Shown in pieces: positions 5,883 through 27,298 of a stretch of 64,000 nt of DNA. The position numbers and the translations under genes were made by a program. This DNA comes from an uncultured Muribaculaceae bacterium. GTDB lineage: Bacteria > Bacillota_I > Bacilli_A > RF39 > UBA660. The number at the start of each line of letters is the position of its first letter. The first letter of the stretch is position 1. Where the stretch lies: contig CAYOYB010000004.1 in the NCBI GenBank assembly GCA_964408085.1, positions 1,057 through 65,056 of the forward strand, given 5' to 3'. Under the pieces are notes generated by a model. The model saw only the letters and a list, made by a program, of their open reading frames with translations, did not search any database and had not been told where the DNA came from.

Positions 5883-6779
5883 TTACTTTAAAAGTTTACA
5901 AAATTTGTCAGCTAAATTTATAAAGGTATTATTCTTTACTAAATTGTACCCTTCAATACCTAAATTACAAACTCTATTACTAATAATACGATTAAATTTT
6001 TTTATAAGATTTTGTGTATTAAATAAATAAACATTTTTATTATCGATAAGAAAATCATTACATAATTCACTATTTAAAATTAAAATATTCTTTTTTAAAT
6101 TAAGACATATATTTAAATAATCACTATTTTCTAAAATATTATCTAAAAAAATAACTAAATTACTATTATTAAGATAATTTTGTAATAACTGGTCATTACA
6201 ATACTTATGTAATTTTAAATTATTAGGTATATCCCCCATTAATAAACGTTCTTTTTTTGTTAAATTAGGATTATAACCAATTAACTCATATTGTAAATTA
6301 GGAAATTTATTTATTAAATCAAAACAAGCTTCTAAATATTTATAATTACTATCAATAATAGTAATACATTTTTTTCTTAAATTAAAAAATTTATTTTTAC
6401 ATAAACCTATACATAAATTTTCTTGTGGTATTACTAAAGTTTTTTTAATTCCAATCATTTTTCTTAAATAAGGTAAACTTGTTATAATTATATTACACTT
6501 ATTAAAAAAATCAGTCATTTTATTTTTATAATTAGAATATTTTTTATTTTTCTTTATATAACTATTACTAATTTTTAATTCATCTAAATAAGCAATATAA
6601 ATAACTTTTTTAGATTTTTTAATTAATTCTAAACTTTTACGATTATTTTGAGCAATTATTAATGTTTTAAAATCACTATTAATATTCGTTGTATATTCTA
6701 ATGCACCATAATCTAAATAAGTTACTATTTTCGTCAATAAAGCCTTATCTTCGATATAAATTAGATTCATATTATTCAC
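5883..6779 (-). CDS. hypothetical protein (possibly glycosyltransferase-like)
   Basis: 298-aa ORF with good coding appearance. No motif recognised with confidence. Confidence 0.45.
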   Translation of the reverse strand: MNNMNLIYIEDKALLTKIVTYLDYGALEYTTNINSDFKTLIIAQNNRKSLELIKKSKKVIYIAYLDELKISNSYIKKNKKYSNYKNKMTDFFNKCNIIITSLPYLRKMIGIKKTLVIPQENLCIGLCKNKFFNLRKKCITIIDSNYKYLEACFDLINKFPNLQYELIGYNPNLTKKERLLMGDIPNNLKLHKYCNDQLLQNYLNNSNLVIFLDNILENSDYLNICLNLKKNILILNSELCNDFLIDNKNVYLFNTQNLIKKFNRIISNRVCNLGIEGYNLVKNNTFINLADKFCKLLK

Positions 6780-6875
6780 CTATTCTATTATTTTCATAAA
6801 TAGACAATTATATACAAATTTAAATCATTAAAATTAAAGAAAATAAAGAATTTATTTGATATAATAAGCAACATA

Positions 6876-6884
6876 TGTTATAAT
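6876..6884 (+). promoter_or_regulatory. extended -10 promoter element upstream of the pilin-like gene trio
   Basis: TGTTATAAT (TGnTATAAT) lies about 24 nt upstream of the ATG at 6908, with GGAAAGGA as the RBS in between. Confidence 0.45.
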
Positions 6885-6907
6885 TGAAATTGGAAAGGAT
6901 GTATAAT

Positions 6908-7801
6908 ATGTTTATTTTAGCTGAATGCAATATTCCACCAGTCATAACAGGAATTTTATCACAGTTATATAAAATAATCATTGTTTTAATTCCGATAGGT
7001 ATTGTTATCTTCGGTTCTATAGATTTCATAAAAGCTACGATGGCAAAAGATAGTAACGCTATTGCATCCAGTACTAAAACATTTATAAGTAGATTAATAA
7101 CAGGATGCATAACATTTTTCGTTCTAACAATTGTAACTTGGCTATTTAAGACAATTATTGGAAATGTTGGAGAAGCTAGTAGTGCGATGAGTTGTGCCTT
7201 ACAAATTATAGGTGGTACTGCTGGAAGTTCTAGTGGCTATGGTAGTCAAAATAGCTATTCAGTTCAAATGGCTGCTAATATGGCTTGCTATGGAACTCAA
7301 TATGGATTATGCATTTCTCAAAATCAAAATCCTAACAAAGTTGAAGAATGCAATACAGCTGCCAATTCGATTTGTCACACAAATAATAAAGTACAAAAAC
7401 CAACTACTACGACTACTACAACAACTACAATTAAAACATATGATCAATATCAAAGTTGTATTGAGCAATATTGCTCAGATTTATCAGGTGTAGCTAGAAA
7501 AAATTGTGAATCAAAATATTGTTCAGAAGAAAAACCACAAATAGATTCATATACTTGCTCACCAGAATTAAATGGAGAAGAATATTGTAATTGTTTTGAA
7601 AGTAAATGTAGTGGTCTATCTGGAATTGCTCTATCAAACTGCAAATCAAAGTGTCAAAACCAAAATACTACAACTACGACTAAGTCAAATCTCCAAGCAT
7701 GCTATGACAAATGTAAAACCGATAATAAATGTAATAGTCAAAGAACATGTAATAAAACAGGATATGAAGAATGTAAAGCTGAATGCAATGAGCAGTCTTA
7801 A
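6908..7801 (+). CDS. VirB2/TrbC-like pilin-like membrane protein, paralog P1, with long Cys-rich/poly-Thr C-terminal extension
   Basis: Start chosen at MFILAECNIPP to align with P2 (MFFLDVCGIPD). Shared core: TM helix - GSIDFIKATMAKD....FISRLITG - TM helix. The extension has about 20 Cys, runs of T9 and T5, and an internal duplication (CIEQYCSDLSGVARKNCESKYC / CFESKCSGLSGIALSNCKSKC). Confidence 0.7.
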   Translation: MFILAECNIPPVITGILSQLYKIIIVLIPIGIVIFGSIDFIKATMAKDSNAIASSTKTFISRLITGCITFFVLTIVTWLFKTIIGNVGEASSAMSCALQIIGGTAGSSSGYGSQNSYSVQMAANMACYGTQYGLCISQNQNPNKVEECNTAANSICHTNNKVQKPTTTTTTTTTIKTYDQYQSCIEQYCSDLSGVARKNCESKYCSEEKPQIDSYTCSPELNGEEYCNCFESKCSGLSGIALSNCKSKCQNQNTTTTTKSNLQACYDKCKTDNKCNSQRTCNKTGYEECKAECNEQS

Positions 7802-7838
7802 AATTAAAAAATAATTATATTAGAAAGAAGGAATTTTT

Positions 7839-8162
7839 ATGTTTTTTTTAGATGTATGTGGAATACCAGATGAAATAGCTAATACTGTCGGAGCAGTTTA
7901 TAATATATTATTGGTTGCTGTTCCTGTATTGGTGGTTTTATTTGGAACAATCGATTTTGTTAAAGCTGTTATTTCTGGTAAAGAAGATGAAATAAAAAAG
8001 AATACAGCTACATTTGTTAAAAGATTAATTACTGGACTTATAGTTTTCTTTATCCTAGCATTTGCAAAATTTATAATTGGTGTTATTAAAACAAACAATA
8101 CAAGTGGTGTTGTTGATTGTTTAGATTCTATATTTGGAAATTCAAAACAACAAGACCAATAA
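7839..8162 (+). CDS. VirB2/TrbC-like pilin-like membrane protein, paralog P2 (core only)
   Basis: 107 aa. Hydrophobic helix - GTIDFVKAVISGKEDEIKKNTATFVKRLITG - hydrophobic helix. Same core as P1, P3, P4 and P5. Confidence 0.75.
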   Translation: MFFLDVCGIPDEIANTVGAVYNILLVAVPVLVVLFGTIDFVKAVISGKEDEIKKNTATFVKRLITGLIVFFILAFAKFIIGVIKTNNTSGVVDCLDSIFGNSKQQDQ

Positions 8163-8178
8163 TAAAAGGGGAAACGTT

Positions 8179-9027
8179 ATGTATATACTAGGAAGTGGAT
8201 GTGGTTGGATACCTGATGAGCCTGTCAAATTTATGTATCATATTATCAACCTTATTAAAAATTTAACACCTGTTGTTTTAATAATAATGGGAAGCTTAGA
8301 TTTTGGAAAAGCCGTAATTTCACAAAAAGAAGAGGAAATAAAAAGAGCCCAAGCTGCTTTTATAAAAAAGTTAATTGCAGGAGCAGCTGTATTCTTTGTT
8401 ATTGTGTTTGCTAGATGGGTTCTAACAATTATTGATAATACTGGACAAGCAGATACAAGTGATGCTTTCAAATGTGTATCACTTCTACTAAATGGTTCAT
8501 ACTCTGCTGATGATAAAACATATTATGATGGTTCAAACATTCCTCAAAAAACCACTAAAACAACTACTAATAAAGTTGAAAATATATCATTGCAAGAAAA
8601 ATGTACTGAATGTATATCAAATAAAGAAGCAGAAATTCAAGCATGTATTAATGATAATACTTATGGAGATGATGCGTATAATCTAAATGATTTAGGCTAT
8701 AAAAACTCGCTTGATAACTGCTGGAACAACTATAACAATTTTCTTTCTGCCTATGATAATTATGCTACCTGTATTGAAACTGCAGCGCAAAAAGGAATAA
8801 CAAGCAATTGTGTTGCTGAATTAGCATCACTTGAGAATTATAATCAGACTTATAGTTTAGGTTATTCACTTAATTTGCCTTGTGACTTTGCTGAAACTGC
8901 AACACAGAAAAAGAATTGCTACTCTTATGACCAATACTCTAACGCTTGTGTCAATTATGCTAGAAGTGAGCAAAATTCAGGGGACCACGAAGCATACTGT
9001 CAAAAAAAATACTGCAGTAGTTGTTAA
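8179..9027 (+). CDS. VirB2/TrbC-like pilin-like membrane protein, paralog P3, with Cys-rich C-terminal extension
   Basis: Start moved to MYILGSGCGWIPDE (ATG 8179, AAAGGGGA RBS). Core is GSLDFGKAVISQKEEEIKRAQAAFIKKLIAG flanked by TM helices. About 200 aa of extension with about a dozen Cys, ending CQKKYCSSC. Confidence 0.7.
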   Translation: MYILGSGCGWIPDEPVKFMYHIINLIKNLTPVVLIIMGSLDFGKAVISQKEEEIKRAQAAFIKKLIAGAAVFFVIVFARWVLTIIDNTGQADTSDAFKCVSLLLNGSYSADDKTYYDGSNIPQKTTKTTTNKVENISLQEKCTECISNKEAEIQACINDNTYGDDAYNLNDLGYKNSLDNCWNNYNNFLSAYDNYATCIETAAQKGITSNCVAELASLENYNQTYSLGYSLNLPCDFAETATQKKNCYSYDQYSNACVNYARSEQNSGDHEAYCQKKYCSSC

Positions 9028-11748: not shown

Positions 11749-13941
11749 CTATTCGTCATCACTAAAGAAATCATCAAAGAATTGATCATCTGATACATCA
11801 TTAATCTTAACATTACTATCTTGAATAGACTTATCATCTATTATTTTTGGTAATTCCTTTGGTATTACAGCATCTTTTTTCTCTTCTAACTTAATATCAG
11901 GGTTAGAATCTTTATCAATGCTAGAATTTTCATTAGCTTTTTTAGCAGCTTCACGTTTTTCTTCTTCTTCTATTTCTGCTATTTTAGCATCTAATTTTTT
12001 AATTATATCATCAACATTAAAGCCACCATTTGGCATACCACCATTGCCAAACAAACCTGGCATACCATTATTAGGATTAGGATTCATGTTAGAATTCATA
12101 TTAGGATTCATATTATTTCGCATTCCATCAAACATTGGAGGAACAGGCATTCCTGGGTTAAATCCACCTGGCATATTAGGCATTCCAAACATATTGCCTC
12201 CACCCATTCCATTCATCATATTTTCATTAAATTTATCGTTGACATATTTCTTTAAATCAAACAAATGAATACTTTCCTTTTCTCTAATTGGATAATCGGC
12301 TTTTCCATAGGTCTTACCCCAAGAATTTTCTTTTTCCATCAACCAATTAGGTGTTAATTTTGTTTTAAAAGGCATCATTCTAATACGTAATACAACCATA
12401 CTCCACTGAGGTAATCTTTGTAAGTCACTAACTGTAACTAAAGGTGTTGAAGCTGTTTTATCTTTTTCCTTAGATTTTTCTTCACCACACATTTTACTTA
12501 ATTCTTCTAAAGCAGCAAGCTCACTACTAATTAAATAAACAATATTACCACAGTTACCTTTTATTGTTTCACCATTTTCTTTACCATATACTTGATATAA
12601 CTGAGCAAAGTTTTGGATAATAAAACTAAATCTAATTGCTCTACTTCTAGCAGCTGTTACCATAGTTGTAACATCTTTAAGTGGCGGCATATTAGCAAAT
12701 TCATCCAAGATAAAATTTGTTCTAAATGGCAATTTTCCACCTGATTCTTGAGCAACATCAATTAGGGTTTCATATACTTGCTTAATAAATATTGTAACTA
12801 AAGAGTGATAAGTCTTCTTTTCATCTTGAACAACAATAAATACTGCTGTTTTCTCACGACCAATATCTTTCATATCAAAATCGCTATGTGATAACATTTC
12901 AGATAAATTCTCTCTTGAAGAGAAAAGTTTTATTTTTTGCTTAAATACCGACAAAATCGAACCTTTAGTATCTGAAGGTGCCAATAAAGTACTAGAAACA
13001 TTAACATAAGCTGGAGAAGCTTGATCTTTATAACTAAAGTATTGTTTCATATAAGTAGAATTTCTAAATTTTTCTTCCCCAACTGTTGTCATTAAATTGA
13101 TTGTATTTAAATTTATTTCTTCTTCTTTAGCATCATCAAATAATGCTAAAGCTAAACCAGCAAAATAATCTGCTGAAGTTTTTTCCCAGAATGGATCTGC
13201 ATTTTGTGATTTTTCATCATACAAAATATTCATTGCTAAATCGTCCAATAACTCATTGGCTTTATCAGAATTACCTGATTTATATAAAGAATATGGTAAT
13301 GATAAAGGATTCCAACAATTTCCTTTTTGTGGATCACGGAAATTAAGCAATACAATCTTATAGCCACGTTCTCTTAATTCATTAGCATTATTTTCATATA
13401 TTTCACCTTTGGGATCAGTTATAATCATTGATTGGTTACTTTTAGCTAAACATTTAACCATTGGTTGAACGGTCATTTGAGTTTTTCCAGAGCCTGTTGA
13501 ACCAATTATTAAATTGTGATATTCACCATCATCTACCCAAATTTCTTTTCCATTATTAATAAGTGGTATACCACCATAAGACGAATTTTCATCACCTGGC
13601 AATACCATTTTCAATTCTCGTTTCATCTCTTTTTCCTTAGCCCAACGAGAATAACCTTTATCTGCTTTATCCTTTACCTCAAAACCAATACCCTTCTCTC
13701 GATTAAAAATAGTAGAAGATACACCCATAATAATTACAATTAAAATAATTAAGAAAGCTATCATTGTTTTGGGCAAATTTTCACCTATAAAAGCTGGAAT
13801 AGGATTAAAACCAGCTATTTCACCCTTTGTTGCTAAACTATTAATATTAAGCACAGCAATAGCTACAAAATACAATAAAACGATAGCAAAAGTGCCAAAA
13901 GCGACCATATCTTTTGGTGTTGCTCTAAACTTAAGCTTCAT
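11749..13941 (-). CDS. VirD4/TraG-type type IV coupling protein (T4CP) with low-complexity C-terminal tail
   Basis: 730 aa. Two N-terminal TM helices. Walker A is LIIGSTGSGKTQ, followed by ITDPKGE. Walker B-like FILDEFANMPPL. The C-terminus has a 74-aa Met/Asn/Pro/Gly-rich stretch and an acidic end, DDQFFDDFFSDDE. Confidence 0.85.
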   Translation of the reverse strand: MKLKFRATPKDMVAFGTFAIVLLYFVAIAVLNINSLATKGEIAGFNPIPAFIGENLPKTMIAFLIILIVIIMGVSSTIFNREKGIGFEVKDKADKGYSRWAKEKEMKRELKMVLPGDENSSYGGIPLINNGKEIWVDDGEYHNLIIGSTGSGKTQMTVQPMVKCLAKSNQSMIITDPKGEIYENNANELRERGYKIVLLNFRDPQKGNCWNPLSLPYSLYKSGNSDKANELLDDLAMNILYDEKSQNADPFWEKTSADYFAGLALALFDDAKEEEINLNTINLMTTVGEEKFRNSTYMKQYFSYKDQASPAYVNVSSTLLAPSDTKGSILSVFKQKIKLFSSRENLSEMLSHSDFDMKDIGREKTAVFIVVQDEKKTYHSLVTIFIKQVYETLIDVAQESGGKLPFRTNFILDEFANMPPLKDVTTMVTAARSRAIRFSFIIQNFAQLYQVYGKENGETIKGNCGNIVYLISSELAALEELSKMCGEEKSKEKDKTASTPLVTVSDLQRLPQWSMVVLRIRMMPFKTKLTPNWLMEKENSWGKTYGKADYPIREKESIHLFDLKKYVNDKFNENMMNGMGGGNMFGMPNMPGGFNPGMPVPPMFDGMRNNMNPNMNSNMNPNPNNGMPGLFGNGGMPNGGFNVDDIIKKLDAKIAEIEEEEKREAAKKANENSSIDKDSNPDIKLEEKKDAVIPKELPKIIDDKSIQDSNVKINDVSDDQFFDDFFSDDE

Positions 13942-13954: not shown

Positions 13955-14668
13955 TTAAATTTGATTATTTTGCTTACGAATATTATTAAATCTAATAATC
14001 ACTATTATAAGAACTATTATAATCAATGAACTAATTATAATAGCCGTTTTATTTCTAAATAAAGTATTCTGTAACATTATATCACTTCTAACCTTATCTG
14101 ACAAATTAAACTCTATTTTTTTTGTTAAATCAGAAGATTTTAAATACCAAGTATAAACATTATTTTTTTCATCAACTTCATCGGCATTATGACTATTCAC
14201 AACATTATAAAATTTTATATTAACTTTTATTTGATCAATATTGTATCTATATACTGCCTCAAGTGGAGTTGAAAAAACTGCATTGCGATAATAATCACCA
14301 AAAGTAGAAAATGAATAAAATTTATTATCATCAATAATCTTAGCACTCTCAAATAATCTAGTATATATTTTACTATTAATATACTGCTCAACACTATTAT
14401 ACGAGTTTTTTACATTTAAACCTGATTGATTATCATCATAAACTCTTTCATATTTATAGTCAGTACCAATAAAATTTTCTTGTTCACGCTCATATAAAAA
14501 TTCGTCAACACTGCCAGCATATTTAAGCATGTTACTATTATCTTCCAAAAATGTTACTTCTTCTATTACTCGTTTTTTATTATCAATAGTTAAATTATAC
14601 TCAACATCACAACCTGTAAAGATAACCGTAAATAAAATCAGTATAACAAATTTTTTTAACTTACTCAT
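13955..14668 (-). CDS. lipoprotein with C-terminal TM anchor, T4SS-associated, function unknown
   Basis: Lipobox FTVIFTGC at the N-terminus and a hydrophobic helix (AIIISSLIIIVLIIVII) near the C-terminus. Packed between the hydrolase and T4CP genes. Confidence 0.6.
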   Translation of the reverse strand: MSKLKKFVILILFTVIFTGCDVEYNLTIDNKKRVIEEVTFLEDNSNMLKYAGSVDEFLYEREQENFIGTDYKYERVYDDNQSGLNVKNSYNSVEQYINSKIYTRLFESAKIIDDNKFYSFSTFGDYYRNAVFSTPLEAVYRYNIDQIKVNIKFYNVVNSHNADEVDEKNNVYTWYLKSSDLTKKIEFNLSDKVRSDIMLQNTLFRNKTAIIISSLIIIVLIIVIIRFNNIRKQNNQI

Positions 14669-14671: not shown

Positions 14672-16894
14672 TTATCCTCCAAAGTTCATATCAAATAAGA
14701 GCGCCGGATTAATCGCATATGCACTAGAACTGGTATTATCTTGTCTAATTTCCAAATGTAAATGGTTTCCTATTGAATAACCTGTATTTCCAACTTGACC
14801 AAGTAAAGTTCCAGCTGAAATAGTTTGTCCAACAGATATATCCGCAGTCGAACTCATATGTCCATAAATAACATAATAATTGTGACCATCTCCAGTATTA
14901 TAACGAATATAAACTCTATTTCCAAAGCCTCCACCGCAACTTGTATCTCCTACAGTACACCAATCAACAACATCAGCTACAACTCCATCAGAAATAGAAT
15001 AAATAGAAGTACCTTGCGGAGCTGCATAATCAATCGCATTATGGTGCTCATCACCTCTTACCTCCCCATACTGACTAGATATATAAAAACTTCCAGTTGG
15101 TAAAGGGGAAAATGTAACATTTAAACTAGCGTCAGGAATGACATTTCCAATTGCATCTTCAAGTTTTCCACCATTTTTAACAGAATCCAATACTTGATTA
15201 ATTTGTTCAGGTGTCAGTGTTATTACTTGACCATTAACTTTAATCGTTCTTCCTCTACTATTCGCTATAGAAGTATTAAGATTAGCCAAATACTTATACA
15301 TTTTTGAATCAGCTTTAAAAGCATCATATATCTCTTTACCAGTTTCATATATGCTATTATCTCCATTAACTTCAGCACTACTATGATTAAATCCACTTTC
15401 CTTATAAACTTGTGTACGAGCAACAATCATTAATGCTCTTAACCTTTCATCAACATTATTGCCACTGTCAACAATTTCCTGTATTTCATTCTTATACTTA
15501 GCTAATGCATATAATAAAACATAATCATCAAAACTAATGGAATTACCATCGGCATCAATAACAACACTTGCCTTTGATTCGTTACTAGCTACAATTTCTG
15601 CAACTTTTTTTTCTATTTTATCTTTACCATATGTTAATTCATAATAATTTTCAACCATATTCATAATATCAGTAGCTGTTTTACGACGATTTTTTCGTTC
15701 TTTTTCAACAATTTCTTTATCAAAAGATGATAATATTTCATCAGCTAATGCTTTTAAAGTACCACTATTATACATAGTCAAATTATCAGCAAATGATAAT
15801 ATATAATTAATTTTTCCTCTTAAATTATCATTATTATCATACTCATTAGCATTATTATAAACTTTATAAGTTTCCTTTAAATTATTAACTATATAACCAT
15901 CATAATAAAAATGTTTAGTACTTGTATCAGCCAATCTTCCTAAAATAAATAAGGTAAGAGCATCGCGAACATTATCCAAAAAATCAGTAAATCGTTGATA
16001 AATACCAGCAAATACTGTAAATTGAGAAAAGTAATTAGTAATGCTACTTGCTACATCAAGCACTTCATTTACAGTTCCAACGGTTTGGCCTATCACATTA
16101 TTTGGCAACACCAAAAAACCAGGCTCAACATCTGTATCAATTTTTTTATCCTCTACGCATAATAATGGTGACATTGAAGGACTACAATCAATTAAAAAAT
16201 CAGTAACTATATTGTATTCAGCAATCAAGTATCCCCTATAACACTGTTCTTCTGTTTCTTTATTATTTTTCGTTAAAAGCGCACATCTTTTTAAAGCAGC
16301 AGCATTAACAAGCATATTTTTATTAGCCTCTACATACTGACTTTGTCCTCCATAAGTTGAAAAAAATCCTCTCTGATAATTAGTAGCAATATTTTTTATA
16401 AAAGACCAAAAAGTAGATTTACCACCAGATATATCTATTATAATTTTACTGGCATCAATATCATCATCCTTTTCTGGTTTTTCACTTAAATAAACTCTCT
16501 CTTCATTACTACCTTCATATAATAGCGTTTGATTTATTATACTTAATTCATAATTATCAAATTTAAACACTTTCTTATAAAGATCTAACATGTCGAAGAA
16601 CTTACCTTCTTCATCCTTTTCTAAATCTTGATTAGTTTTAAATCCATATAAAGATATAGCATTACCTATTCTTTCTCCCCATTTAGTAGAGTCATCTAAA
16701 ATTTCATCAATTTGTTCTAGTGTTCCAAAATAAACACACAAAATAACAATGAAAATTACCGCACCTATTAATATATACGGTAAAATCGTGCCAATAGCAG
16801 TTATTATGGCTGTTTTAATAGGAGCCGTAGCTGCTTTTAACATAGTCTTGGCTCCTAATTTAGCTAACTCTTTTCCATTGTCATTTTGTTCCAT
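14672..16894 (-). CDS. membrane-anchored cell-wall hydrolase with C-terminal M23 peptidase domain (VirB1-function analogue)
   Basis: 740 aa. N-terminal TM region. C-terminal HHNAIDYAAPQGTSIYSISDGVV ... GNTGYSIGNHLHLEIR (HxxxD ... HxH, the M23/LytM signature). Confidence 0.85.
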   Translation of the reverse strand: MEQNDNGKELAKLGAKTMLKAATAPIKTAIITAIGTILPYILIGAVIFIVILCVYFGTLEQIDEILDDSTKWGERIGNAISLYGFKTNQDLEKDEEGKFFDMLDLYKKVFKFDNYELSIINQTLLYEGSNEERVYLSEKPEKDDDIDASKIIIDISGGKSTFWSFIKNIATNYQRGFFSTYGGQSQYVEANKNMLVNAAALKRCALLTKNNKETEEQCYRGYLIAEYNIVTDFLIDCSPSMSPLLCVEDKKIDTDVEPGFLVLPNNVIGQTVGTVNEVLDVASSITNYFSQFTVFAGIYQRFTDFLDNVRDALTLFILGRLADTSTKHFYYDGYIVNNLKETYKVYNNANEYDNNDNLRGKINYILSFADNLTMYNSGTLKALADEILSSFDKEIVEKERKNRRKTATDIMNMVENYYELTYGKDKIEKKVAEIVASNESKASVVIDADGNSISFDDYVLLYALAKYKNEIQEIVDSGNNVDERLRALMIVARTQVYKESGFNHSSAEVNGDNSIYETGKEIYDAFKADSKMYKYLANLNTSIANSRGRTIKVNGQVITLTPEQINQVLDSVKNGGKLEDAIGNVIPDASLNVTFSPLPTGSFYISSQYGEVRGDEHHNAIDYAAPQGTSIYSISDGVVADVVDWCTVGDTSCGGGFGNRVYIRYNTGDGHNYYVIYGHMSSTADISVGQTISAGTLLGQVGNTGYSIGNHLHLEIRQDNTSSSAYAINPALLFDMNFGG

Positions 16895-16918: not shown

Positions 16919-18703
16919 TTAGTAACCTCCACCACTACCAAATGAATCTAATTCTTGCTCTGTTACGACAACATTTATTCGCATACGTCTACTACCACAT
17001 ACAAATAATGCTTCACCTTGATTATATCTCTTAATACTTTCTTTTTCATTTTCATTTAAATCTATTAATTTAGCTAAATCTTCAACAGCTTGTTTTTTTA
17101 GCCCCATAATTAAATAATAAGATGCATTATCAAAAATTGCTTTACCTTGAGTTATTACATTATGATCACTAAAATCACTAGGTTGCTGAGTAATAATAAT
17201 TGTTCCAGTATTATATTTACGAGCACGTCTTTGAATTTGCGCTAAAAAGTCTGCTCCTAAAGTATTACTTCCACTAAGTAGAACATGAGCTTCATCAACT
17301 GTTAATACAGTATTTATTGATCTATCTAAAGTAAGACCCCATGCATATTTTAAAATATTAAAGAATAAAGCATTTCTTATATTTGTATCAGCATTCATAA
17401 GTTCCCTTATATTAAATACAATAAACTGACTATTAGAAGAAATAGTTGTATGACCATCAAAATAGTATTTTAATTCTTTAGTAATTGGTCTAATCTTAAT
17501 CTCCAATTTTTCTAAAATATCTTTTTCATGACTTTGTTCTGGCATTGATAAAATTCTACCTTTAATTGTCGCATAAACATCCCTAAATGTTGGATAATCT
17601 TCTGATTTAAATTTTGTAAAATCAGTATCAAAATTCATACCAAAACGTCTATAAGTATCTTGGACAACCTCACTAAACATTGTTAAAACATCTTCTTCTA
17701 TATTAGGATCATAATATTTAAGAAAAGCTTTTATTGTTTGTAAAGTTCTAGTTAAAACAGTATATCCTAAACCTTCTTTAACCTCGTCTTCATCGGCATC
17801 TAAAACAACCTCTAGTGGATTAATCATACCATATTCTCCACCTTTTCCTAGGTCAATGAAATCACCATCATACATAGCTGCCATTTCTTCGAATTCACCT
17901 TCAGGGTCAATAATAACAATTTGGCAGTTATTTCTAATATGTGAACGTAATATCAATTTAGCTGCTGTTGACTTTCCAGAACCAGAAGTACCAAGAATTA
18001 TCAAATTAGCGTTATTACGATTGTGCTCCTTCTTTATTTGAAATAAGAATTGATTAAATAAAATAACACCACCTGAGAAATCAACACCCAATAAAGTAGC
18101 AAGACCTGGATCCTTAATACTATCAAAAATAAATGGATACATAGCTGCCATTGTTGGTGTTGGAATAGGTGTACCAATTCTTTCTTCTATATCTTGTTTA
18201 GGGAAGATAGGAATCATCGATTTTAATACTTTTTCCTGTTCAAATCTTAACGGAAAAGCTTTAAGTTCCATTGCTTCTAAATAATTTCGAACTTGGAACT
18301 TCTTACTTGTTAATTCTTCAGCTGAATCAGCAGTTATCATAATATGCATTTGAAAATCATAAATTTTTGATTGACTTGCCGCAATTTGTGAAATAAATTG
18401 TTCCAAAGATTCATAATCTTGCCTAATTCTTTCTTGAATTGTTTTATCATTTTCTTCATGATATCTTTGTTTTAAATCAGCTATTTCCTTATTTAACATT
18501 TTTCTTAAAATATCAAAAGGTAATGGCAAATGTTTAATAACAACCTTTATACCAGACATACTTGTCAATGACGACAAATAGCCAGGCTCAATATATTTAG
18601 GATATGATACAACTGTCATAATACAAGCGTGTTTATCACTAATAATAAAATCAGAAGCTTTAAATTCTAGTCCCTTAGGAGCTATTTGACTCTTAATATC
18701 CAT
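16919..18703 (-). CDS. VirB4-family T4SS ATPase, C-terminal 594-aa part (ATPase domain)
   Basis: Walker A is ILGTSGSGKSTAAK. Also IIDPEGEF, Walker B LTVDEAHVLL and RRARKYNTGTIIITQQPSDF. The start overlaps the preceding ORF by 11 nt. Confidence 0.9.
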   Translation of the reverse strand: MDIKSQIAPKGLEFKASDFIISDKHACIMTVVSYPKYIEPGYLSSLTSMSGIKVVIKHLPLPFDILRKMLNKEIADLKQRYHEENDKTIQERIRQDYESLEQFISQIAASQSKIYDFQMHIMITADSAEELTSKKFQVRNYLEAMELKAFPLRFEQEKVLKSMIPIFPKQDIEERIGTPIPTPTMAAMYPFIFDSIKDPGLATLLGVDFSGGVILFNQFLFQIKKEHNRNNANLIILGTSGSGKSTAAKLILRSHIRNNCQIVIIDPEGEFEEMAAMYDGDFIDLGKGGEYGMINPLEVVLDADEDEVKEGLGYTVLTRTLQTIKAFLKYYDPNIEEDVLTMFSEVVQDTYRRFGMNFDTDFTKFKSEDYPTFRDVYATIKGRILSMPEQSHEKDILEKLEIKIRPITKELKYYFDGHTTISSNSQFIVFNIRELMNADTNIRNALFFNILKYAWGLTLDRSINTVLTVDEAHVLLSGSNTLGADFLAQIQRRARKYNTGTIIITQQPSDFSDHNVITQGKAIFDNASYYLIMGLKKQAVEDLAKLIDLNENEKESIKRYNQGEALFVCGSRRMRINVVVTEQELDSFGSGGGY

Positions 18704-19253
18704 CGCTCATCACCGTCCCAAATGTCGTTGTTTGACCTCCATTTAAGAAATTATCTAAAACCATTCTTAAATCATCATTAGAGGTTTGCATTGTAGTTAA
18801 ACCTGCATTAGCAAAATTATTAATTAAATTTCTAATACGTTTTTGAATTACTTCAATATCTTTGTGTTTAAATAAAAGGAAATATTCTGTATCAACTACA
18901 TTGTTATTCATAAACATATTAGCTTTTTGAATATCTTGTGTAATTAACTTCCTTTTAGCTTGACTAGTAACTGAATTATATAAAAGTTGAAGTTGTGATA
19001 AATATACATGAATATCAACTGGACGATCTGCTACAATTATCCAAAACTCATAATCAATCATATTATATACATTTTTTAAATTCGAAATAATAATATCTTG
19101 AGCTTCTTGCTCCAAAATGAATATATTTCTAGGTCTAATTTTAACCCCCGAAACTTTCAAATTATCCTCTAAAATAATCATACCATTTGTTATACTTTTG
19201 ATAGGAACAAAAGCTTCATTAGTATACTTACTTTTTGAATTTGTTGACTTCAT
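18693..19253 (-). CDS. 186-aa protein resembling the N-terminal domain of Gram-positive VirB4 (split gene)
   Basis: The sequence FVPIKSITNGMIILEDNLKVSGVKIRPRNIFILEQEAQDIIISNLKNVYNMIDYEFWIIVADRPVDI resembles, from memory, the N-terminal region of TrsE/Orf16-type VirB4 proteins. Its stop overlaps the next ORF's start (GATGGATATTAA). Confidence 0.6.
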   Translation of the reverse strand: MKSTNSKSKYTNEAFVPIKSITNGMIILEDNLKVSGVKIRPRNIFILEQEAQDIIISNLKNVYNMIDYEFWIIVADRPVDIHVYLSQLQLLYNSVTSQAKRKLITQDIQKANMFMNNNVVDTEYFLLFKHKDIEVIQKRIRNLINNFANAGLTTMQTSNDDLRMVLDNFLNGGQTTTFGTVMSDGY

Positions 19254-19551
19254 CTATATAACACCAACCTTTCCATACAAACTTTTGTCTAGATGTAATA
19301 TATTTAAAGAAAATAGCAATAAATTTTCTAACATTGTGATAATACGCTAACGGAAATACCAGAAAAGCACAAAAGACTCCTGGTATTAGCGCAATTATCG
19401 TATAAGTCATTTGTTCTATAGGTAAAGCTAATAATAAAATAAACGAAATTATTACTCCTATCGATAAAATTACTAAATCAGTTGGTTTAAATAAACCTAA
19501 AATTAATGCTGATTTTTTTGAATTAGCTGGTATAAGAAAATTATTATACAC
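19228..19551 (-). CDS. VirB3/PrgI/TcpE-like small membrane protein
   Basis: 107 aa with two adjacent TM helices. Sits immediately upstream of VirB4, as in Gram-positive T4SS operons. Confidence 0.55.
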   Translation of the reverse strand: MYNNFLIPANSKKSALILGLFKPTDLVILSIGVIISFILLLALPIEQMTYTIIALIPGVFCAFLVFPLAYYHNVRKFIAIFFKYITSRQKFVWKGWCYIDEVNKFKK

Positions 19552-19568: not shown

Positions 19569-21767
19569 TTATTTTTGTCTTTTATTTACTCTATCAATTG
19601 CTTCAATATCTTTATTGTAGCCTGCTATATCTTTATTCATCTGATTAATAGCACCTTGATATTTCTTATATTCTGCATCTTTATCATTATATCTTCTCTT
19701 CCAATATGCTTCTTCATTAGTAGCACTAGTAAGTCTTCTATTATAAGCATCAACACGTTTGATATCATCCTCAATACGATTTTGAAGTGTATTAAAGTTA
19801 GTAGAATTAGTCATATTAAACTTACTTTCAAACTCTGACAATTGATCAGCACTTACTCCTCTATGAGCATTTGTATATAATTTTCTATAATCAGAATATG
19901 ATAATTGACTAAATTTCTTAGTTACGCCATCAACTTCAAATGTATAATCTTGTAGTTGTTCATTATAAGTTCCGCCTAATTCCTTAAATCTATCTTTATC
20001 TATCTTTTCCTCATTATCACGAAGATTTTGTAGCTCGTGAACAGCATTATTATGTTGTTGTAAAGCAGCCATTCGCTCACTAGATAGTGTTGAAAGTTGA
20101 TTTTGAGCATCACGCAATTTATTTTCTGTACTCTTGATATCTGCCTTTATACGTCCTTTTGGACTATAGCTATCTTTAATACCTGCCATTTCGGCAAACT
20201 TTCCATATGCTCCTCTAATTGATGGAAGGATTGGATAAGCAGATTTATATTTATTACCTGCTGTTGCATAAGTCACGGCTCTTGCATTTCTAATATCACC
20301 TGTTCTTGAAATGGCGGTAGACGCAATATTTTTAGCGCTATCCATAACATCCATAGGATTTAGACTACCATTCAATCCCTCACCAGATGGTTTGAAACTT
20401 TTAAATGCACCCAATGCTGAACGTGCACCTGTTCCAACGGCACCTGTTCCAAATGCTAAACCTGAACGAAGCAGACCACCGATACCTAACTTACCATTAT
20501 TCTCATCTTTAATCATTTTACCTGTACCAATAGCATTACCTATTGCTCCACCAATAATACCACCAGTTACACCAGCAATACCACTAGCTATAGCTGTAGT
20601 ACTTTTAGCGTCTCTCATAAATCCACCAAGACTACCAAATAGATTTTCAATCAATTTTGGAAGTTGTAAAGCAAATAAGAAACAACCAATGATTAAGAAT
20701 ATGATTACTAATGGATAATCTTTAAAAGTATATGCCGTTCCTGAATAACCAGCAACACCATTAGAATTAGTTAATATTTTTGTTATAATTAAAATTGCAA
20801 AATAGAAAGCTATTAATCTTATAAATAATTCTAGGAATGTTTTTATTGTTTCTTTAAGCCATTTATTAAACATACTATTAGAATTATCCTTAGGTTCAAT
20901 ATAAGTAATAATTGGTAATGGTGCAATTAAACTTAAAAATGATAATTTAACACTACGAATTGCCACACCTACAGCAATTACTACTAAAACAACTATACAA
21001 ATTGCACCTATCAATAAACCAAATAAGCCATCAACATGAACAACAGCCGTTTTATCGATTTGTAACATAACTACATCAATTAAGGCTTTATACATATTTC
21101 GTTCTTCTAAACCTTCACACATGGCTTTATAAATATCTGGGTCTTCTTTTTGGATAACCTTTTCAACACAATGACTATGGCAAACTTGCTTTTCACCCAT
21201 ATCAGTTGCCTTAATAAATTCATCACAAGATGACAAATCGACACCTGTTGTATCACCCCATATATCTGCTTCCGTATTAAAAGTAACAAAAGGAGCCAAA
21301 ATAGAATAAGCTAAATAATCTGAGGTTTTTATACCAAATCCAACTTCAGGATCAACATTCTCTGAATCAGCTTTACCAGAACCATTACCAAAAACTAATT
21401 TTTCTAAAATTCCATCTTGTAAAATTAATCCTTGTAATTCAAATGCTTTTTTAAAAATAGTGTTTATAGTTCCAAGTAAAACTAGAACCACTACTACTTT
21501 AGTTAAAATTTTACCAGCCCCAGCCTGTTGGTCCGCAATCTTATCAGGATTGGTAATATATTGAATGACAGAAAAGGCTAGTTTAAATATCATGAATAAT
21601 CCAATAAGTCCAAAAACATTACTTTTCAATTTGTCAAAGGCATCACTACCAAGCAAATCCGCATCAGCTAACATCACAATCAAATTATATAATGATCGAA
21701 CCATAAAGCTAATAAATTTAAAAACAAAAGTACTAAGTAAATTAGAAACAGCTCTTACTAATGACAT
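19569..21767 (-). CDS. VirB6-like polytopic T4SS membrane protein, paralog A
   Basis: 732 aa. N-terminal TM pair, a Cys-containing extracytoplasmic loop, a TM bundle, a Gly-rich segment (GIAGVTGGIIGGAIGNAIGTG) and a C-terminal coiled coil. The N-terminus is alignable with paralog B. Confidence 0.65.
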   Translation of the reverse strand: MSLVRAVSNLLSTFVFKFISFMVRSLYNLIVMLADADLLGSDAFDKLKSNVFGLIGLFMIFKLAFSVIQYITNPDKIADQQAGAGKILTKVVVVLVLLGTINTIFKKAFELQGLILQDGILEKLVFGNGSGKADSENVDPEVGFGIKTSDYLAYSILAPFVTFNTEADIWGDTTGVDLSSCDEFIKATDMGEKQVCHSHCVEKVIQKEDPDIYKAMCEGLEERNMYKALIDVVMLQIDKTAVVHVDGLFGLLIGAICIVVLVVIAVGVAIRSVKLSFLSLIAPLPIITYIEPKDNSNSMFNKWLKETIKTFLELFIRLIAFYFAILIITKILTNSNGVAGYSGTAYTFKDYPLVIIFLIIGCFLFALQLPKLIENLFGSLGGFMRDAKSTTAIASGIAGVTGGIIGGAIGNAIGTGKMIKDENNGKLGIGGLLRSGLAFGTGAVGTGARSALGAFKSFKPSGEGLNGSLNPMDVMDSAKNIASTAISRTGDIRNARAVTYATAGNKYKSAYPILPSIRGAYGKFAEMAGIKDSYSPKGRIKADIKSTENKLRDAQNQLSTLSSERMAALQQHNNAVHELQNLRDNEEKIDKDRFKELGGTYNEQLQDYTFEVDGVTKKFSQLSYSDYRKLYTNAHRGVSADQLSEFESKFNMTNSTNFNTLQNRIEDDIKRVDAYNRRLTSATNEEAYWKRRYNDKDAEYKKYQGAINQMNKDIAGYNKDIEAIDRVNKRQK

Positions 21768-21846
21768 TTATTACCACACCTCCCAAGGGCTATATTATTA
21801 TAGTATACCATATAATCTATTAACAATTCAATTATTTTAAGTATAA

Positions 21847-23904
21847 TTATTGTCCTTTTATATATTTATTTAACAATTCTAATCTTTCCTCAATATCATC
21901 AAGTTCTTTTTGCATTTCTTCTTGTTTTGAATATAACTCATCATATTTATCATATGTTTCTTGATTTATAACATCTGAGCCTTCACCACGAGCATTCATT
22001 TCACTAACATATTCTGCATAATTATCATAATGTTGCTCGAATGCTTTTTCAATATTACCTGGATTATCCTCAGAGGCCAAACTAAATGATAAATATTCTT
22101 GACCTTGTTTATACGAATCTTGTAAATTAGTTTGACGAGTTTCAAGTGCTGTTACTTCTGATTTCATATCATCAACAGACAAATCAGATATACCAGTTCT
22201 TCTTGCTTGGCGTTTCATACTACTTTCAGTTATACTAGCTGTAACATCACCAGATTTATAAGCACCTTTATTCTCAACTAATTTTTTAGCTGTTTTGTAC
22301 CCAGAACTTACACCACCAGCAACGATACTACCTGGAACTCTTAATACACTAATTGGAGCACCAGCTACATTCTTAATAGTAGAACCAAATACTCCCAATT
22401 TTCCAAAAAATCCGCTAGATTGAGCTAAATTTGTTTTAAAGTTTTTAATACTTCCTGAAGCATTTGAAAAACTAGTTTTCACATTTCTAATGTTTTCAGG
22501 AGTCGCCGCTATATTAGCAGCTGTTCCACCAATTGTAGAAATTCCAATAGCAGAAGCCCCAATAGCAAATTTTCCCACATCTTTAATTAAACTTAAAAAA
22601 CCATTCTCCTTATTTAAGTTAAATAAAGTACATAATAATTGTGGCATTTGGAAAGCAAACAAGAAAATACCAATTATAATAAATACATTTACCATTATTT
22701 CGTTCTTTGAAGCCGTACTTAATAACCATTTAAATAATAAAACTGAAAAAAATACTACTGCCAATCTAATAAACAATTGTAAATATGTTGTAATAGTTTC
22801 CTTAAGCCAACCATTAAATAATTTACTATCTTTAACATCAATATAAGATATAATTGGAATTGGTGAAATTACCTGTAAAAAAGCTAATTTAATGCATCTA
22901 ATCGCAATATTAACACAAATAATCACTAATAAGAACGTTACAAGTAACCCTACCAATGTAGCTAGGATAAAATGATACTCAAAAATAAAATCACCATCAG
23001 AATATGTCTCTGTTTCGGGATTACACGCATGACCATGTATACCACTATAAAATACTGGATCAGTTTCTATAGCTGTTACAATTTCCGCTGATAGCATAGT
23101 CGAAACAGATTTTTCATCTCTAGCCTTATTGATTAAATCATATACATATTTTCCGTCTCTAACACCACAATAATGCGTCCATTCTGGAAACATAGTAATA
23201 GCGGGATCCTTACCAGATTTGCAATTATAATATAAATCTCGACTATCAGGATAAACACCATTAGCATTTGGCACACCATAGGCAGCATTTCGTGTTGATG
23301 GATAATATAAATAATAAGCACATTTAGGCAATGTAGGGCATAATTCACCACCAGGAACTGGCACACAACAATACTTTAAATCGATTGCATTTGTTGACTT
23401 ATCTTCTTCTAAAAATATATTAGGGCAATCATCAAAAGCTAAAGCTAAAGGGCCAGAAACATTATAATCTAAAAAATTACTAAAAACTAAATAGCTAACT
23501 TCATCACTAATATTTTCGAGTTCTTTTTCACCAATTCTATTTCCAAGAACAATATTTCCAATAATATTATCACGCAAAATAATTCCTTGTAATTGATAAG
23601 CTTTTTCAAAAATTACAGGAACTGTAGGAATTAAAACTAAAGCAATAATAACTCTTTGAACTATTTTTATAGCTGATTGTTGTTTATCGGGATTAATAAT
23701 ATAATTAATTATAACTAAAGCTAATTTAAATAACATAAATAGACCAATTATACCGTATATACGCTCTATAATGTCATTAATATATTTATTCGCTATATTA
23801 ACATCAGCAAGTTGTAAAATTAGTGTATAAATTTTACTAATTAAATCAGCGATAAAAATATCTACTGAAGCAAATAAAGATCTAACACTAGATACAAAAT
23901 CCAT
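21847..23904 (-). CDS. VirB6-like polytopic T4SS membrane protein, paralog B
   Basis: 685 aa with the same architecture as paralog A. Shared blocks: LADxxL/I...GLFMxFKLAxxxIxYIxNPDK and SPxPIISYIxxKD...FNxWLKETIxTxLxLFIRL. Confidence 0.65.
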   Translation of the reverse strand: MDFVSSVRSLFASVDIFIADLISKIYTLILQLADVNIANKYINDIIERIYGIIGLFMLFKLALVIINYIINPDKQQSAIKIVQRVIIALVLIPTVPVIFEKAYQLQGIILRDNIIGNIVLGNRIGEKELENISDEVSYLVFSNFLDYNVSGPLALAFDDCPNIFLEEDKSTNAIDLKYCCVPVPGGELCPTLPKCAYYLYYPSTRNAAYGVPNANGVYPDSRDLYYNCKSGKDPAITMFPEWTHYCGVRDGKYVYDLINKARDEKSVSTMLSAEIVTAIETDPVFYSGIHGHACNPETETYSDGDFIFEYHFILATLVGLLVTFLLVIICVNIAIRCIKLAFLQVISPIPIISYIDVKDSKLFNGWLKETITTYLQLFIRLAVVFFSVLLFKWLLSTASKNEIMVNVFIIIGIFLFAFQMPQLLCTLFNLNKENGFLSLIKDVGKFAIGASAIGISTIGGTAANIAATPENIRNVKTSFSNASGSIKNFKTNLAQSSGFFGKLGVFGSTIKNVAGAPISVLRVPGSIVAGGVSSGYKTAKKLVENKGAYKSGDVTASITESSMKRQARRTGISDLSVDDMKSEVTALETRQTNLQDSYKQGQEYLSFSLASEDNPGNIEKAFEQHYDNYAEYVSEMNARGEGSDVINQETYDKYDELYSKQEEMQKELDDIEERLELLNKYIKGQ

Positions 23905-23932: not shown

Positions 23933-24280
23933 TTATAAACATGTTCCCCCATGATCTACACCAGATATATCTAAAATCCAGTCTAATAATAATGGTAAAA
24001 TAAATAAAATCACAATTGCAATTAATCTTTTAGCAAAATTTTGACCAGCTTTTTTCAAACTATCATCCTTACCACTAGTAATCGCTTTAAAAAAGTCTAG
24101 TATACCTAAAACTATCCCAATTGCTAAAGCAACCCATTTTACCATATCAAATAAATCTTTCAAAAATTCAGCAATATTTGAACCAACTACTTGTTTACAA
24201 TCAGTAGCTGCCATTATCCTTCCTGTTAAAGAAAAAAAAGAAAGGAAGAAAAACATAAATGTATTTTTAATTTTTTTCAT
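23933..24280 (-). CDS. VirB2/TrbC-like pilin-like protein, paralog P4 (with cleavable-looking signal peptide)
   Basis: Start moved to MKKIKNTF (ATG 24280, GGAGG RBS). Signal-like N-terminus ending IMAATDC. Core is GILDFFKAITSGKDDSLKKAGQNFAKRLIA between hydrophobic helices. Confidence 0.7.
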   Translation of the reverse strand: MKKIKNTFMFFFLSFFSLTGRIMAATDCKQVVGSNIAEFLKDLFDMVKWVALAIGIVLGILDFFKAITSGKDDSLKKAGQNFAKRLIAIVILFILPLLLDWILDISGVDHGGTCL

Positions 24281-24306
24281 ATAAGCCTCCAGCATTTCTC
24301 ATAATA

Positions 24307-24538: not shown

Positions 24539-24895
24539 TTATTTTCCACAATCATTATTAACAAAACAATCGAAGCAACCCCAAAATTTATTATTTTCTG
24601 ATTTATCCCCACCAACTAATGAAACTACAAATTGAACCAATGAAACTACAAAGAATACCAAAACGGCAATAACTAATCTCTTAATTAATAATCCTTGATT
24701 TTTCTTTATATCATCTTCCTTTTGGGACATTACAGCTTTACCTAAATCTAGTAAACCAAAAAATACAACCATAATTGGAATAACTACTTTCATTATATTA
24801 ATTATTGTTGAAATAGAAGTAGGAAGAACAGTATCGAATTCTATTTCACCTCCACCACAACTAGTTGTTGCTAAAACATTAATTAAATCTGTCAT
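24539..24895 (-). CDS. VirB2/TrbC-like pilin-like protein, paralog P5
   Basis: 118 aa with a GGGAGG RBS. Core is GLLDLGKAVMSQKEDDIKKNQGLLIKRLVIA between hydrophobic helices. C-terminal tail is CFDCFVNNDCGK. Confidence 0.75.
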   Translation of the reverse strand: MTDLINVLATTSCGGGEIEFDTVLPTSISTIINIMKVVIPIMVVFFGLLDLGKAVMSQKEDDIKKNQGLLIKRLVIAVLVFFVVSLVQFVVSLVGGDKSENNKFWGCFDCFVNNDCGK

Positions 24896-25955: not shown

Positions 25956-25967
25956 ACTATCACCTTC

Positions 25968-26462
25968 CTATTTATCTCCTAAATCATAAATAATACGTGT
26001 TTCACCATAAACAGGCAATTCTAATTGTGCTCCAATAACTGGTATATCAAAATACATAAAAGTCTTGACTCCATAATAATATCCGCGTTCTGATGGAAAA
26101 GCATAAATACAATAATGATAATTAGAATGTGAATTTAAAGTAATTCCACCTTTTTTTGATACACTTTCATCATCACAATTATTTTGTGACCAACCACCAT
26201 AGTTTGCCTTATAACCAATTTCTGATAATTCGCGATTTATTTGTTCTTCTAAATCGCTTCCCTCTAAATCAATCGGTTCTGGATTACCGTAAATATCTAC
26301 CTTAGTATTATATTCAGCATAAGCAGATACATAATGTAGAATTTTATTTTTTACTTTATTAGCCCTTGAATAATTAACAGCGGCAGTTAAAATAACCATC
26401 ATTAAAAAAGCAAATGCTAAAACTAAGCCAAATACAAAAGCATTTCCCATTGATTCTTTCAT
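25968..26462 (-). CDS. TadE-like pseudopilin / prepilin-like protein
   Basis: The N-terminus MKESMG|NAFVFGLVLAFAFLMMVIL is a short charged leader ending in Gly, followed by a hydrophobic helix. Paralogous to the next gene (C-terminal YFDIPVIGAQLELPVYGE vs YIDMPIIGDYFRIPVYGE). Confidence 0.6.
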   Translation of the reverse strand: MKESMGNAFVFGLVLAFAFLMMVILTAAVNYSRANKVKNKILHYVSAYAEYNTKVDIYGNPEPIDLEGSDLEEQINRELSEIGYKANYGGWSQNNCDDESVSKKGGITLNSHSNYHYCIYAFPSERGYYYGVKTFMYFDIPVIGAQLELPVYGETRIIYDLGDK

Positions 26463-26474
26463 TTAACCACATCC

Positions 26475-26945: not shown

Positions 26946-26983
26946 AAGTTACTCCTCCTTATTTTAAAACTTAAAATTATTTA

Positions 26984-27235: not shown

Positions 27236-27268
27236 TATTTCACCACCTTTAACTTATATACCATTTAT

Positions 27269-27298
27269 ATTATACCACATTTTAAAATGAATAATCAA
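27269..27298 (-). promoter_or_regulatory. candidate strong promoter directly upstream of the Flp-like pilin gene
   Basis: On the - strand: TTGATT, an 18-nt spacer ending in TGG, then TATAAT. It lies in the 66-bp gap between the TadC-like and pilin genes. Confidence 0.5.

Follow-up and report, generated by a model that had tools for sequence, protein, structure and literature searches.

Probable pilin-like subunits, some bearing cysteine-rich outer domains, at a joint Tad-type IV secretion locus of gut Bacilli

The closest described counterparts of the locus treated here come from Patescibacteria, for which published reports describe essential arrays of divergent VirB2-like pilins beside type IV secretion systems (T4SSs) of the monoderm type (PMC10633639, PMC12102498), with Southlakia epibionticum SEML1_0006-0019 and Nanosynbacter lyticus TM7x as examples (PMC10633639, PMC12102498, PMC12857230). 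According to a review of 31 December 2025, VirB2-like pilins in monoderm T4SSs occur only in Patescibacteria, which would give that group a unique potential among monoderms for conjugative pili (PMC12857230; also PMC10633639, PMC12102498). Here we analyze five genes in a 64-kb stretch of contig CAYOYB010000004.1 (the window, by which we mean that whole stretch; it is identical to locus L001 of our comparative set) from a low-GC gut Bacilli lineage. We conclude, with reasonable rather than high confidence, that the products of all five are pilin-like subunits of a chromosomally encoded T4SS, that they form a divergent branch of PF18895 and that some of them act as anchors that display variable surface domains. 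The genes, referred to as paralogs A to E, are listed below with their scores against a hidden Markov model (HMM) of the family.

6908-7801, plus strand: paralog A, 297 amino acids (aa), 111 bits; pilin-like core from aa 1 to ~110 with a degenerate loop, a Gly/Ser linker and a ~190-aa outer C-terminal domain
7839-8162, plus strand: paralog B, 107 aa, 129 bits; short pilin-like protein without extension
8179-9027, plus strand: paralog C, 282 aa, 120 bits; pilin-like core, predicted disordered linker at aa 113-135 and a ~150-aa outer domain with 12 Cys
24539-24895, minus strand: paralog D, 118 aa, 139 bits
23933-24280/24295, minus strand: paralog E, 115/120 aa, 88 bits; VirB6-proximal subtype, for which the database gene call starts at 24280

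The likeness to Patescibacteria extends over host envelope, composition and gene arrangement. Both hosts are monoderms whose chromosomal T4SS is composed as in Gram-positive bacteria (VirB1-like hydrolase, VirB3, VirB4, VirB6); both carry arrays of divergent paralogs by virB4 (2-11 genes of ~25% identity there; 1-7 per related locus here, with the window's five at 22-38%); the pilins of both are detected with the same PF18895 model; and a type IV-pilus-class system lies alongside in both, with no relaxase seen (here, among the open reading frames (ORFs) scanned). The same design principle, a divergent pilin-like array beside VirB3, VirB4, VirB6 and a type IV-pilus-class system with no relaxase seen, is thus found in a different phylum. 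There are also differences: the host here belongs to the low-GC gut Bacilli; VirD4 is present, whereas it is reported as absent in S. epibionticum; the T4SS and a Tad-like module are physically joined in a single conserved locus; large disulfide-rich outer domains are attached to the N- or C-terminus of many members; the hairpin has an invariant Cys on either side; and the window's clade possesses a detached three-gene operon. For Patescibacteria, the consulted portions of the literature contain no mention that we could find of a Tad fusion, of outer domains, of the Cys pair or of a detached operon.

Other known systems are more remote. VirB2 of the Ti plasmid, TrbC of RP4 and TraA of F, which are grouped in PF04956, resemble the present proteins in being small hairpins, with a basic loop between two hydrophobic helices, and in being encoded next to virB3, virB4 and virB6. 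They differ from them in that there is no sequence or profile similarity, in that four of our five proteins lack a signal peptide, and in the outer-domain fusions and the monoderm envelope found here, where the Cys pair may replace cyclisation. The archaeal Ced DNA-import system, which combines the small membrane proteins CedA1/CedA2 with a VirB4-like ATPase, compares by description only: it is a chromosomal, relaxase-less, T4SS-derived machine with hairpin pilin-like subunits and a type IV pilus partner, in a host that differs in being archaeal. To our knowledge, no outer-domain fusions occur in Ced. Integrative and conjugative elements (ICEs) of mycoplasmas share with the window a run of small transmembrane (TM) proteins followed by VirB4; NF045975 recognizes the N-terminus of the window's split VirB4 at E 9e-16, a score well short of the curated cutoff, and a few family members match NF045849 (Mbov_0395 pilin-like), NF045848 and NF045889 weakly. 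They are unlike it in that the locus here is chromosomal with housekeeping flanks and no integrase among the ORFs scanned, and in that NF045849 finds no match among the five proteins at E<=1, so that the kinship with the Mbov_0395 family suggested in an earlier, sequence-only reading of this DNA is not upheld. The small ICE proteins are described in the recent review as VirB3-like and not as pilins (PMC12857230). For the locus in gut Bacilli we found no description in the literature searched, which is no proof that none exists.

The family was delimited with an HMM built from 40 members and searched against the whole 64-kb window, where it matched exactly five ORFs (E 1e-41 to 7e-26), the same five that the sequence-only reading had singled out on the basis of a shared core. 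That core is confirmed by alignment: the five proteins share an alignable stretch of ~100 aa, in which the others are 22-38% identical to the first, and display a short acidic outer N-tail with an invariant Cys, a first TM helix (TM1), the motif G-x-x-D-x-x-K-A, a Lys/Glu-rich basic loop ending in K-R, a second TM helix (TM2) and a second invariant Cys. Invariant in all five are the Cys before TM1, the G..D..KA residues, a Leu, a Phe in TM2 and the Cys after TM2, and across 387 sequences the G, D, K, K, R, F and two Cys positions are conserved at 86-98%, with the loop as the most conserved part of the protein across the family. The loop motif as originally formulated applies to four members and fails in 6908-7801 (paralog A), where the degenerate KDSNAIASS replaces K-E/D-E/D-x-I-K-K. 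DNA similarity among the paralogs is restricted to the loop-coding stretch (75% over 60 nt), which implies that the duplications are old. Paralog A has alternative in-frame starts at ATG 6899 and TTG 6884; the start at 6908 is favored because of the ribosome-binding-site-like GGAAAGGA at 6892-6899. Paralog D, whose type accounts for the largest share (66) of the 120 database matches listed, has four outer Cys, one N-terminal and the others in a CxxC...C arrangement.

The two long C-terminal extensions were also described correctly from the letters. Paralog A has 23 Cys, of which 20 lie in the extension, and paralog C has 14, of which 12 lie in the extension; the Thr runs of paralog A are at aa 166-174 (T9) and aa 254-258 (T5), and its internal Cys-repeat matches without gaps at 12 of 21 positions, where 200 shuffles reached a maximum of 9.

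Profile comparison connects the family with T4SS pilins. All five paralogs match PF18895 (T4SS_pilin; 71 model positions, gathering threshold 26.6 bits), which is the top match for four of them: A scores 12.6 bits (model positions 5-71), B 18.3 (3-71), C 15.4 (4-71), E 22.3 (3-71; E 1.4e-4) and D 14.8 (19-51). The alignment is thus in register over the full model for four of the five and partial for 24539-24895 (paralog D). Seventeen of the 40 family members match the model at E<=0.01, with a best value of 2.8e-6, and a PF18895 domain is precomputed for P0002 and P0016, which are close relatives. By comparison, NF045849 (Mbov_0395 family pilin-like conjugal transfer protein) matches seven of the 40 relatives weakly (best E 1.2e-3), and the NCBIfam matches of the five paralogs themselves are only noise. 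Gene context, which bears the main weight of the argument, agrees with the profile result, since two members directly precede VirB6-VirB3-VirB4 and the same adjacency recurs in ~70 related loci. The data therefore uphold the earlier description of a helix-loop-helix membrane family tied to a T4SS and strongly imply a genetic tie of the family to VirB6, VirB3 and VirB4. An AlphaFold 2 model of paralog B (predicted local distance difference test, pLDDT, 78.6) consists of a confidently predicted hairpin of helices 11-46 and 49-85 followed by a helix at 91-99. We place the family, on sequence comparison, as a putative divergent branch around PF18895 and not as a member of TrbC/VirB2 or Mbov_0395.

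Charge distribution and signal peptides define the topology. Among 328 aligned members the mean number of Lys plus Arg is 5.9 in the loop, 0.7 in the N-tail and 0.5 in the C-tail; a signal-peptide-like N-terminus precedes the first Cys in 116 of the 328 and there is no room for one in 203; and in other genera N-terminal domains of 200-400 aa are inserted between signal peptide and core. The charge bias together with the signal peptides argues strongly for insertion as a hairpin whose ends both face outward and whose basic, conserved loop is cytoplasmic, and hence for an outer position of both the Cys before TM1 and the Cys after TM2. Within the window, the N-terminus of paralog E (23933-24295) is signal-peptide-like, and the other four paralogs have no room for such a peptide. 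Family members without a signal peptide open with a conserved hydrophobic pentapeptide (MFILA, MFILD, MYILG) and 1-8 further residues before the Cys (window sites 6908-6925, 7839-7859 and 8179-8202); the pentapeptide aligns with the ...VLA / ...IMA ends of the signal peptides of other members and may be either a cleaved element or a relic.

Of the 333 aligned members, 328 retain the conserved Cys pair and 298 have an even count of outer Cys; among those with long C-tails the count is even in 30 of 32. This parity is hard to explain unless practically all outer cysteines are paired in disulfides; we regard such pairing as strongly implied. Outer domains of at least 60 aa are N-terminal in 32 members, C-terminal in 27 and present at both ends in none. 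They change much faster than the cores that carry them: among orthologs of the plus-strand trio A, B and C, cores are 44-84% identical and tails 19-41%, with tail lengths of 0-241 aa, and for orthologs of paralog A the corresponding values are 45-84%, 33-35% and 0-215 aa. Tail modules also recur across paralogs. The A and C tails of L008 are 42% identical (E 3e-36), the tail module of paralog C in the window resembles that of paralog A in L008 and L009 (E 1e-6 to 1e-7), and the C tail of the window matches the A and C tails of L008, L009 and L011. Replacement between near-identical strains is seen in L004 and L007, which are 99.6% identical to about codon 133 of gene C, then carry unrelated stretches of 1.4 kb and 0.78 kb (L004 10729-12133, L007 4179-4957), and are 99% identical again thereafter. 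The replaced stretches comprise the outer-domain-coding part of paralog C and the downstream spacer, and the breakpoint falls at the core/linker junction of the gene. A silent cassette was not found in the 1.2-kb gap after gene C of L004, which holds only short ORF fragments. The outer domain of paralog C retrieved only itself from 5.8 billion proteins; Pfam gave nothing above threshold for ten long family members, the outer domains being without a Pfam match; and AlphaFold 2 models the paralog C domain as all-alpha at low confidence (pLDDT mostly 40-75) behind a disordered linker. These comparisons strongly imply that outer domains at either terminus evolve as exchangeable cassettes. The earlier suggestion of surface display on a VirB2-like anchor is accordingly backed by comparative data, namely Cys parity, N-terminal domains, tail divergence, cassette replacement and topology.

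The family is very large, and nearly all of its listed matches are unnamed. A profile search of a word-indexed database returned 263 proteins, almost all of them unnamed metagenomic sequences; an exhaustive profile search returned 9,890 representatives of 50%-identity clusters at E<=1e-3, 5,674 of them at E<=1e-10; and 259 family stretches were confirmed in species-representative genomes. Nearly all confirmed stretches lie in metagenome-assembled genomes of gut origin (rabbit, ruminant, mouse and human) that bear the labels Bacilli, Tenericutes, Erysipelotrichaceae or Mycoplasmatota, and the lineage is common in gut metagenomes of these four sources. A T-box leader in the window is consistent with a host belonging to the Bacillota. 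Some bins (among L031, L032, L044, L047, L057, L067, L072 and L086) are titled Muribaculaceae, Bacteroidaceae or Roseburia despite a Bacilli-type locus; these titles probably reflect a labelling or binning problem and not a true occurrence in those taxa.

Context was mapped by placing the window's cluster proteins (phmmer) and the family HMM on 87 loci from the scan of species-representative genomes, 75 of them outside the window's clade. About 70 of the 75 have a CpaE-position gene, 1-7 family members and then, where the contig extends, VirB6, VirB3, the VirB4 N-piece and VirB4; their full order reads p535, p221, DUF5411, RcpC, TadA, TadB?, TadC?, two minor-pilin-like genes, the CpaE-position gene, the 1-7 members, VirB6, a VirB3-like gene, the VirB4 N-piece and VirB4, with M23, p237 and VirD4 following VirB4 in some related loci. 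This conserved context and synteny imply that the locus is a vertically inherited chromosomal feature. The E-type member is 115-120 aa in the window's lineage, as against 340-494 aa with an N-terminal outer domain in most other genera.

Paralogs A, B and C stand apart from this arrangement, as the sequence-only reading had observed. They lie on the strand opposite to the 26.1-kb cluster (11749-37885, minus strand), 2.7 kb beyond its VirD4 end, and are separated from it by genes for RmuC, a Band_7/SPFH protein and a 95-aa rhodanese (precomputed Pfam matches on the identical locus L001). The trio is preceded by the following element.

6856-6884, plus strand: promoter-like site of the trio, with TTGATA, a 17-nt spacer and a TG-extended TATAAT

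The site matches the consensus at 11 of 12 positions in addition to the TG extension and is the best in the region, as judged by consensus match alone. Given this site and intergenic gaps of only 37 and 16 nt, the trio reads as its own operon. Across the 87 loci, the trio stands beside the cluster in every relative that has it and is confined to the window's clade (L001-L012). There it is always kept, in the order RNase R, 298-aa gene, trio, RmuC, Band_7, rhodanese, VirD4, even in relatives whose paralog B is only 57% identical. The trio thus appears to be a lineage-specific relocation or expansion of array members.

The cluster itself joins two machines, a Tad-like pilus module and a T4SS, and paralogs D and E sit exactly at the junction between them, directly upstream of a VirB6-like pair. 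Its components and the gene beside the trio are as follows.

5883-6779: 298-aa gene beside the trio, no Pfam match; homologs widespread in related loci
11749-13941, minus strand: VirD4 coupling protein (Pfam)
13955-14668, minus strand: p237, 237 aa, no Pfam or NCBIfam match
14672-16894, minus strand: M23 peptidase, 740 aa (Pfam), a possible wall-hydrolase counterpart of VirB1
16919-18703, minus strand: VirB4 ATPase, 594 aa (P-loop_TraG, AAA_10)
18693-19253, minus strand: VirB4 N-terminal piece, 186 aa (NF045975 N-terminus, E 9e-16)
19228-19551, minus strand: VirB3-like 2-TM protein, 107 aa (NF045975 N-terminus, E 0.014)
19569-23904, minus strand: two tandem VirB6/TrbL-like polytopic proteins, 732 and 685 aa (PF19597 TrbL_4, 3.3e-8 and 1.9e-5)
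24954-30989, minus strand: Tad-like module, directly upstream of the pair D/E, in an order conserved in related loci
within the Tad-like module, minus strand: CpaE-position protein, 333 aa, no family match
25968-26462, minus strand: minor-pilin-like, leader MKESMG/...
26475-26945, minus strand: minor-pilin-like, leader MREGIG/...
26984-27235, minus strand: pilin-like 83-aa ORF, unlisted, MKEAAG/EANLTVV..., 4 Cys
within the Tad-like module, minus strand: two polytopic proteins in the TadB/C position, no family match
29002-30159, minus strand: T2SSE-family ATPase of the Tad-like module
30162-30989, minus strand: RcpC/CpaB-like protein of the Tad-like module
31431-35066, minus strand: p1211, 1211 aa, no Pfam or NCBIfam match; homologs in about a dozen related loci
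36278-37885, minus strand: p535, no Pfam or NCBIfam match; homologs widespread in related loci

NF045975 is the Mbov_0397 VirB4 model, and the stronger of its matches to the two small ORFs lies, as noted for the ICE comparison, far below the curated cutoff. The VirB4 region (16919-19551, minus strand) consists of three overlapping ORFs; the same three-ORF arrangement is present in nearly all related loci and is therefore not a sequencing frameshift. One TrbL-like ORF was labelled by phmmer mapping in each related locus of other genera, as against two in the window. Homologs of p237 recur more widely in related loci than those of p1211. A prepilin peptidase was not identified for the Tad-like module, whose three pilin-like products each begin with a leader M[KR]E..G and continue into a hydrophobic helix.

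The locus is flanked by housekeeping genes (RNase R, SmpB, ScpA/ScpB, tRNA-Leu), and neither a relaxase nor an integrase occurs among the ORFs scanned, a scan that took in part of the window's ORFs and none of the remaining genome. A reading of the locus as a mobile element of the ICE type is not supported, given these flanks and the synteny conserved across species. A tblastn search of 72,556 plasmids with paralog D gave no match and hence no sign of the family on known plasmids.

How such proteins might operate can be outlined by analogy with VirB2. The short members B, D and E would be the structural subunits: through their conserved cytoplasmic loop they would be recognized by VirB4 and VirB6, pulled out of the membrane and built up on VirB6 into a short pilus or a stalk that spans the wall. 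In the case of VirB2, it is established that VirB4 drives the dislocation of the pilin. An N-to-C disulfide may link the two conserved Cys, which would tie the ends of the protein together as head-to-tail cyclisation does in VirB2/TrbC, but not through the backbone. The long members A and C would serve as minor or tip subunits, with Thr/Ser/Gly linkers carrying disulfide-rich variable domains past the wall, where these would bind a partner cell or host surface. Known conjugative pili have both termini of the subunit on the exterior and the loop lining the lumen; an extension at either end is therefore geometrically compatible with assembly, and that no member is extended at both ends agrees with a limit set by packing. 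In the window's clade, three members would then have been relocated to an operon of their own with a separate promoter, 2.7 kb past the cluster's VirD4 end. Beyond the subunit assignment itself, we advance only tentatively, as possible but doubtful on present data, the wider proposal that these genome-reduced gut Bacilli join Patescibacteria as a second lineage of monoderms in which a T4SS-dependent pilus or stalk is built, here by a vertically inherited, chromosomal hybrid Tad-T4SS machine whose disulfide-closed pilins bear swappable receptor-binding cassettes. If true, this would imply a contact-dependent lifestyle, with attachment to, uptake from or delivery into partner cells or host surfaces.

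Several results weigh against assigning the five proteins to T4SS pilins. None of them attains the PF18895 gathering score (12.6-22.3 versus 26.6 bits), and 25 of the 40 family members also match MamI weakly, which we attribute to the noise of short hydrophobic TM profiles. PF04956 (TrbC/VirB2) gave no match to the five at E<=1, and hhalign of the 40-member alignment against eight annotated plasmid VirB2/TrbC proteins returned a probability of 2.5%, so that the sequence-only proposal of a VirB2/TrbC-like pilin stands at the level of PF18895 and gene context and falls as membership of TrbC/VirB2. A sequence profile search of the PDB found nothing relevant, and Foldseek against the PDB found generic helical hairpins only (E>1), with no VirB2 or TraA, the two-helix fold being too simple to discriminate. 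Four of the five paralogs lack the signal peptide typical of VirB2; the trio lies on the opposite strand with its own promoter-like site, its coupling to the T4SS being drawn from linkage only; none of the RNA runs searched for the locus contains it, and the DNA runs that do are gut metagenomes with a low word share. Finally, cultured Gram-positive T4SSs are reported to be without pili and VirB2 (PMC12857230).

The last point, together with the lack of detectable similarity to canonical VirB2, leads to the main rival explanation, in which the proteins are membrane-retained parts of a T4SS translocon or wall complex, nearer to VirB3/PrgI-type subunits or to a wall-spanning scaffold. The hairpin would be an anchor, the loop would dock to VirB4 or VirB6, the outer domains would build or decorate a wall duct, and there would be no pilus. 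A loop that is the most conserved part of the protein is what a docking surface predicts, and the large outer domain usual in the E-type member (340-494 aa) would be awkward for the repeating subunit of a filament. However, a separate VirB3-like 2-TM protein is already encoded at 19228-19551, PF18895 is the only consistent profile match, and arrays of as many as seven divergent paralogs, whose cassettes are replaced between strains, are easier to reconcile with exposed variable subunits than with a fixed part of a channel. We therefore rate this rival as somewhat unlikely, a minority reading that still carries appreciable weight. An explanation in which the hairpin is a generic two-TM anchor for secreted Cys-rich surface proteins, with the trio independent of the T4SS (for example as adhesins or in surface variation) and sharing only ancestry with the cluster genes, appears improbable. 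It draws on the trio's own promoter-like site, opposite strand and three unrelated intervening genes, on Pfam scores that are all below threshold amid other TM-family noise, and on the generic Foldseek hairpins. The sequence-only reading had itself raised the idea of a generic two-TM motif, but the core is far from generic, given the conservation of its key residues and two Cys across 387 sequences; moreover, in nearly all loci retrieved from beyond the window's clade the family is located within the Tad-T4SS locus, and wherever relatives possess the trio, it keeps its linkage to the cluster's VirD4 end. Membership of the five proteins in the adjacent Tad-like pilus, as Flp-type subunits or pseudopilins, and not in the T4SS might be suggested by the position of the arrays at the module junction, directly after the CpaE-position gene. 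This we hold to be very unlikely, as the five have neither a class-III leader (cleavage after Gly) nor a single N-terminal hydrophobic helix and instead show two TM helices and a cytoplasmic loop, and as the Tad module has its own M[KR]E..G leader candidates (26984-27235, 26475-26945 and 25968-26462), from which it follows that the 2-TM family is not the Tad pilin.

With the assignment to T4SS pilin-like subunits preferred, the family is attractive for experiment on account of its invariant outer Cys pair, its outer domains at either terminus and the cassette replacement between near-identical strains. Its study could throw light on wall crossing and target recognition by a monoderm T4SS, and on the use to which abundant gut bacteria put the machine.

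Elsewhere in the window, a T-box leader (RF00230, 127 bits; 63340-63580, minus strand) lies directly upstream of three tandem tRNA-Asn(GTT) genes at 63071-63309. These are followed (region 58037-63580, minus strand) by a 112-aa ORF in the gatC position without a Pfam match, gatA (Amidase), gatB and a GAD-domain AspRS, so that a tRNA-dependent asparagine pathway, its own tRNA genes included, appears to lie downstream of a single T-box.

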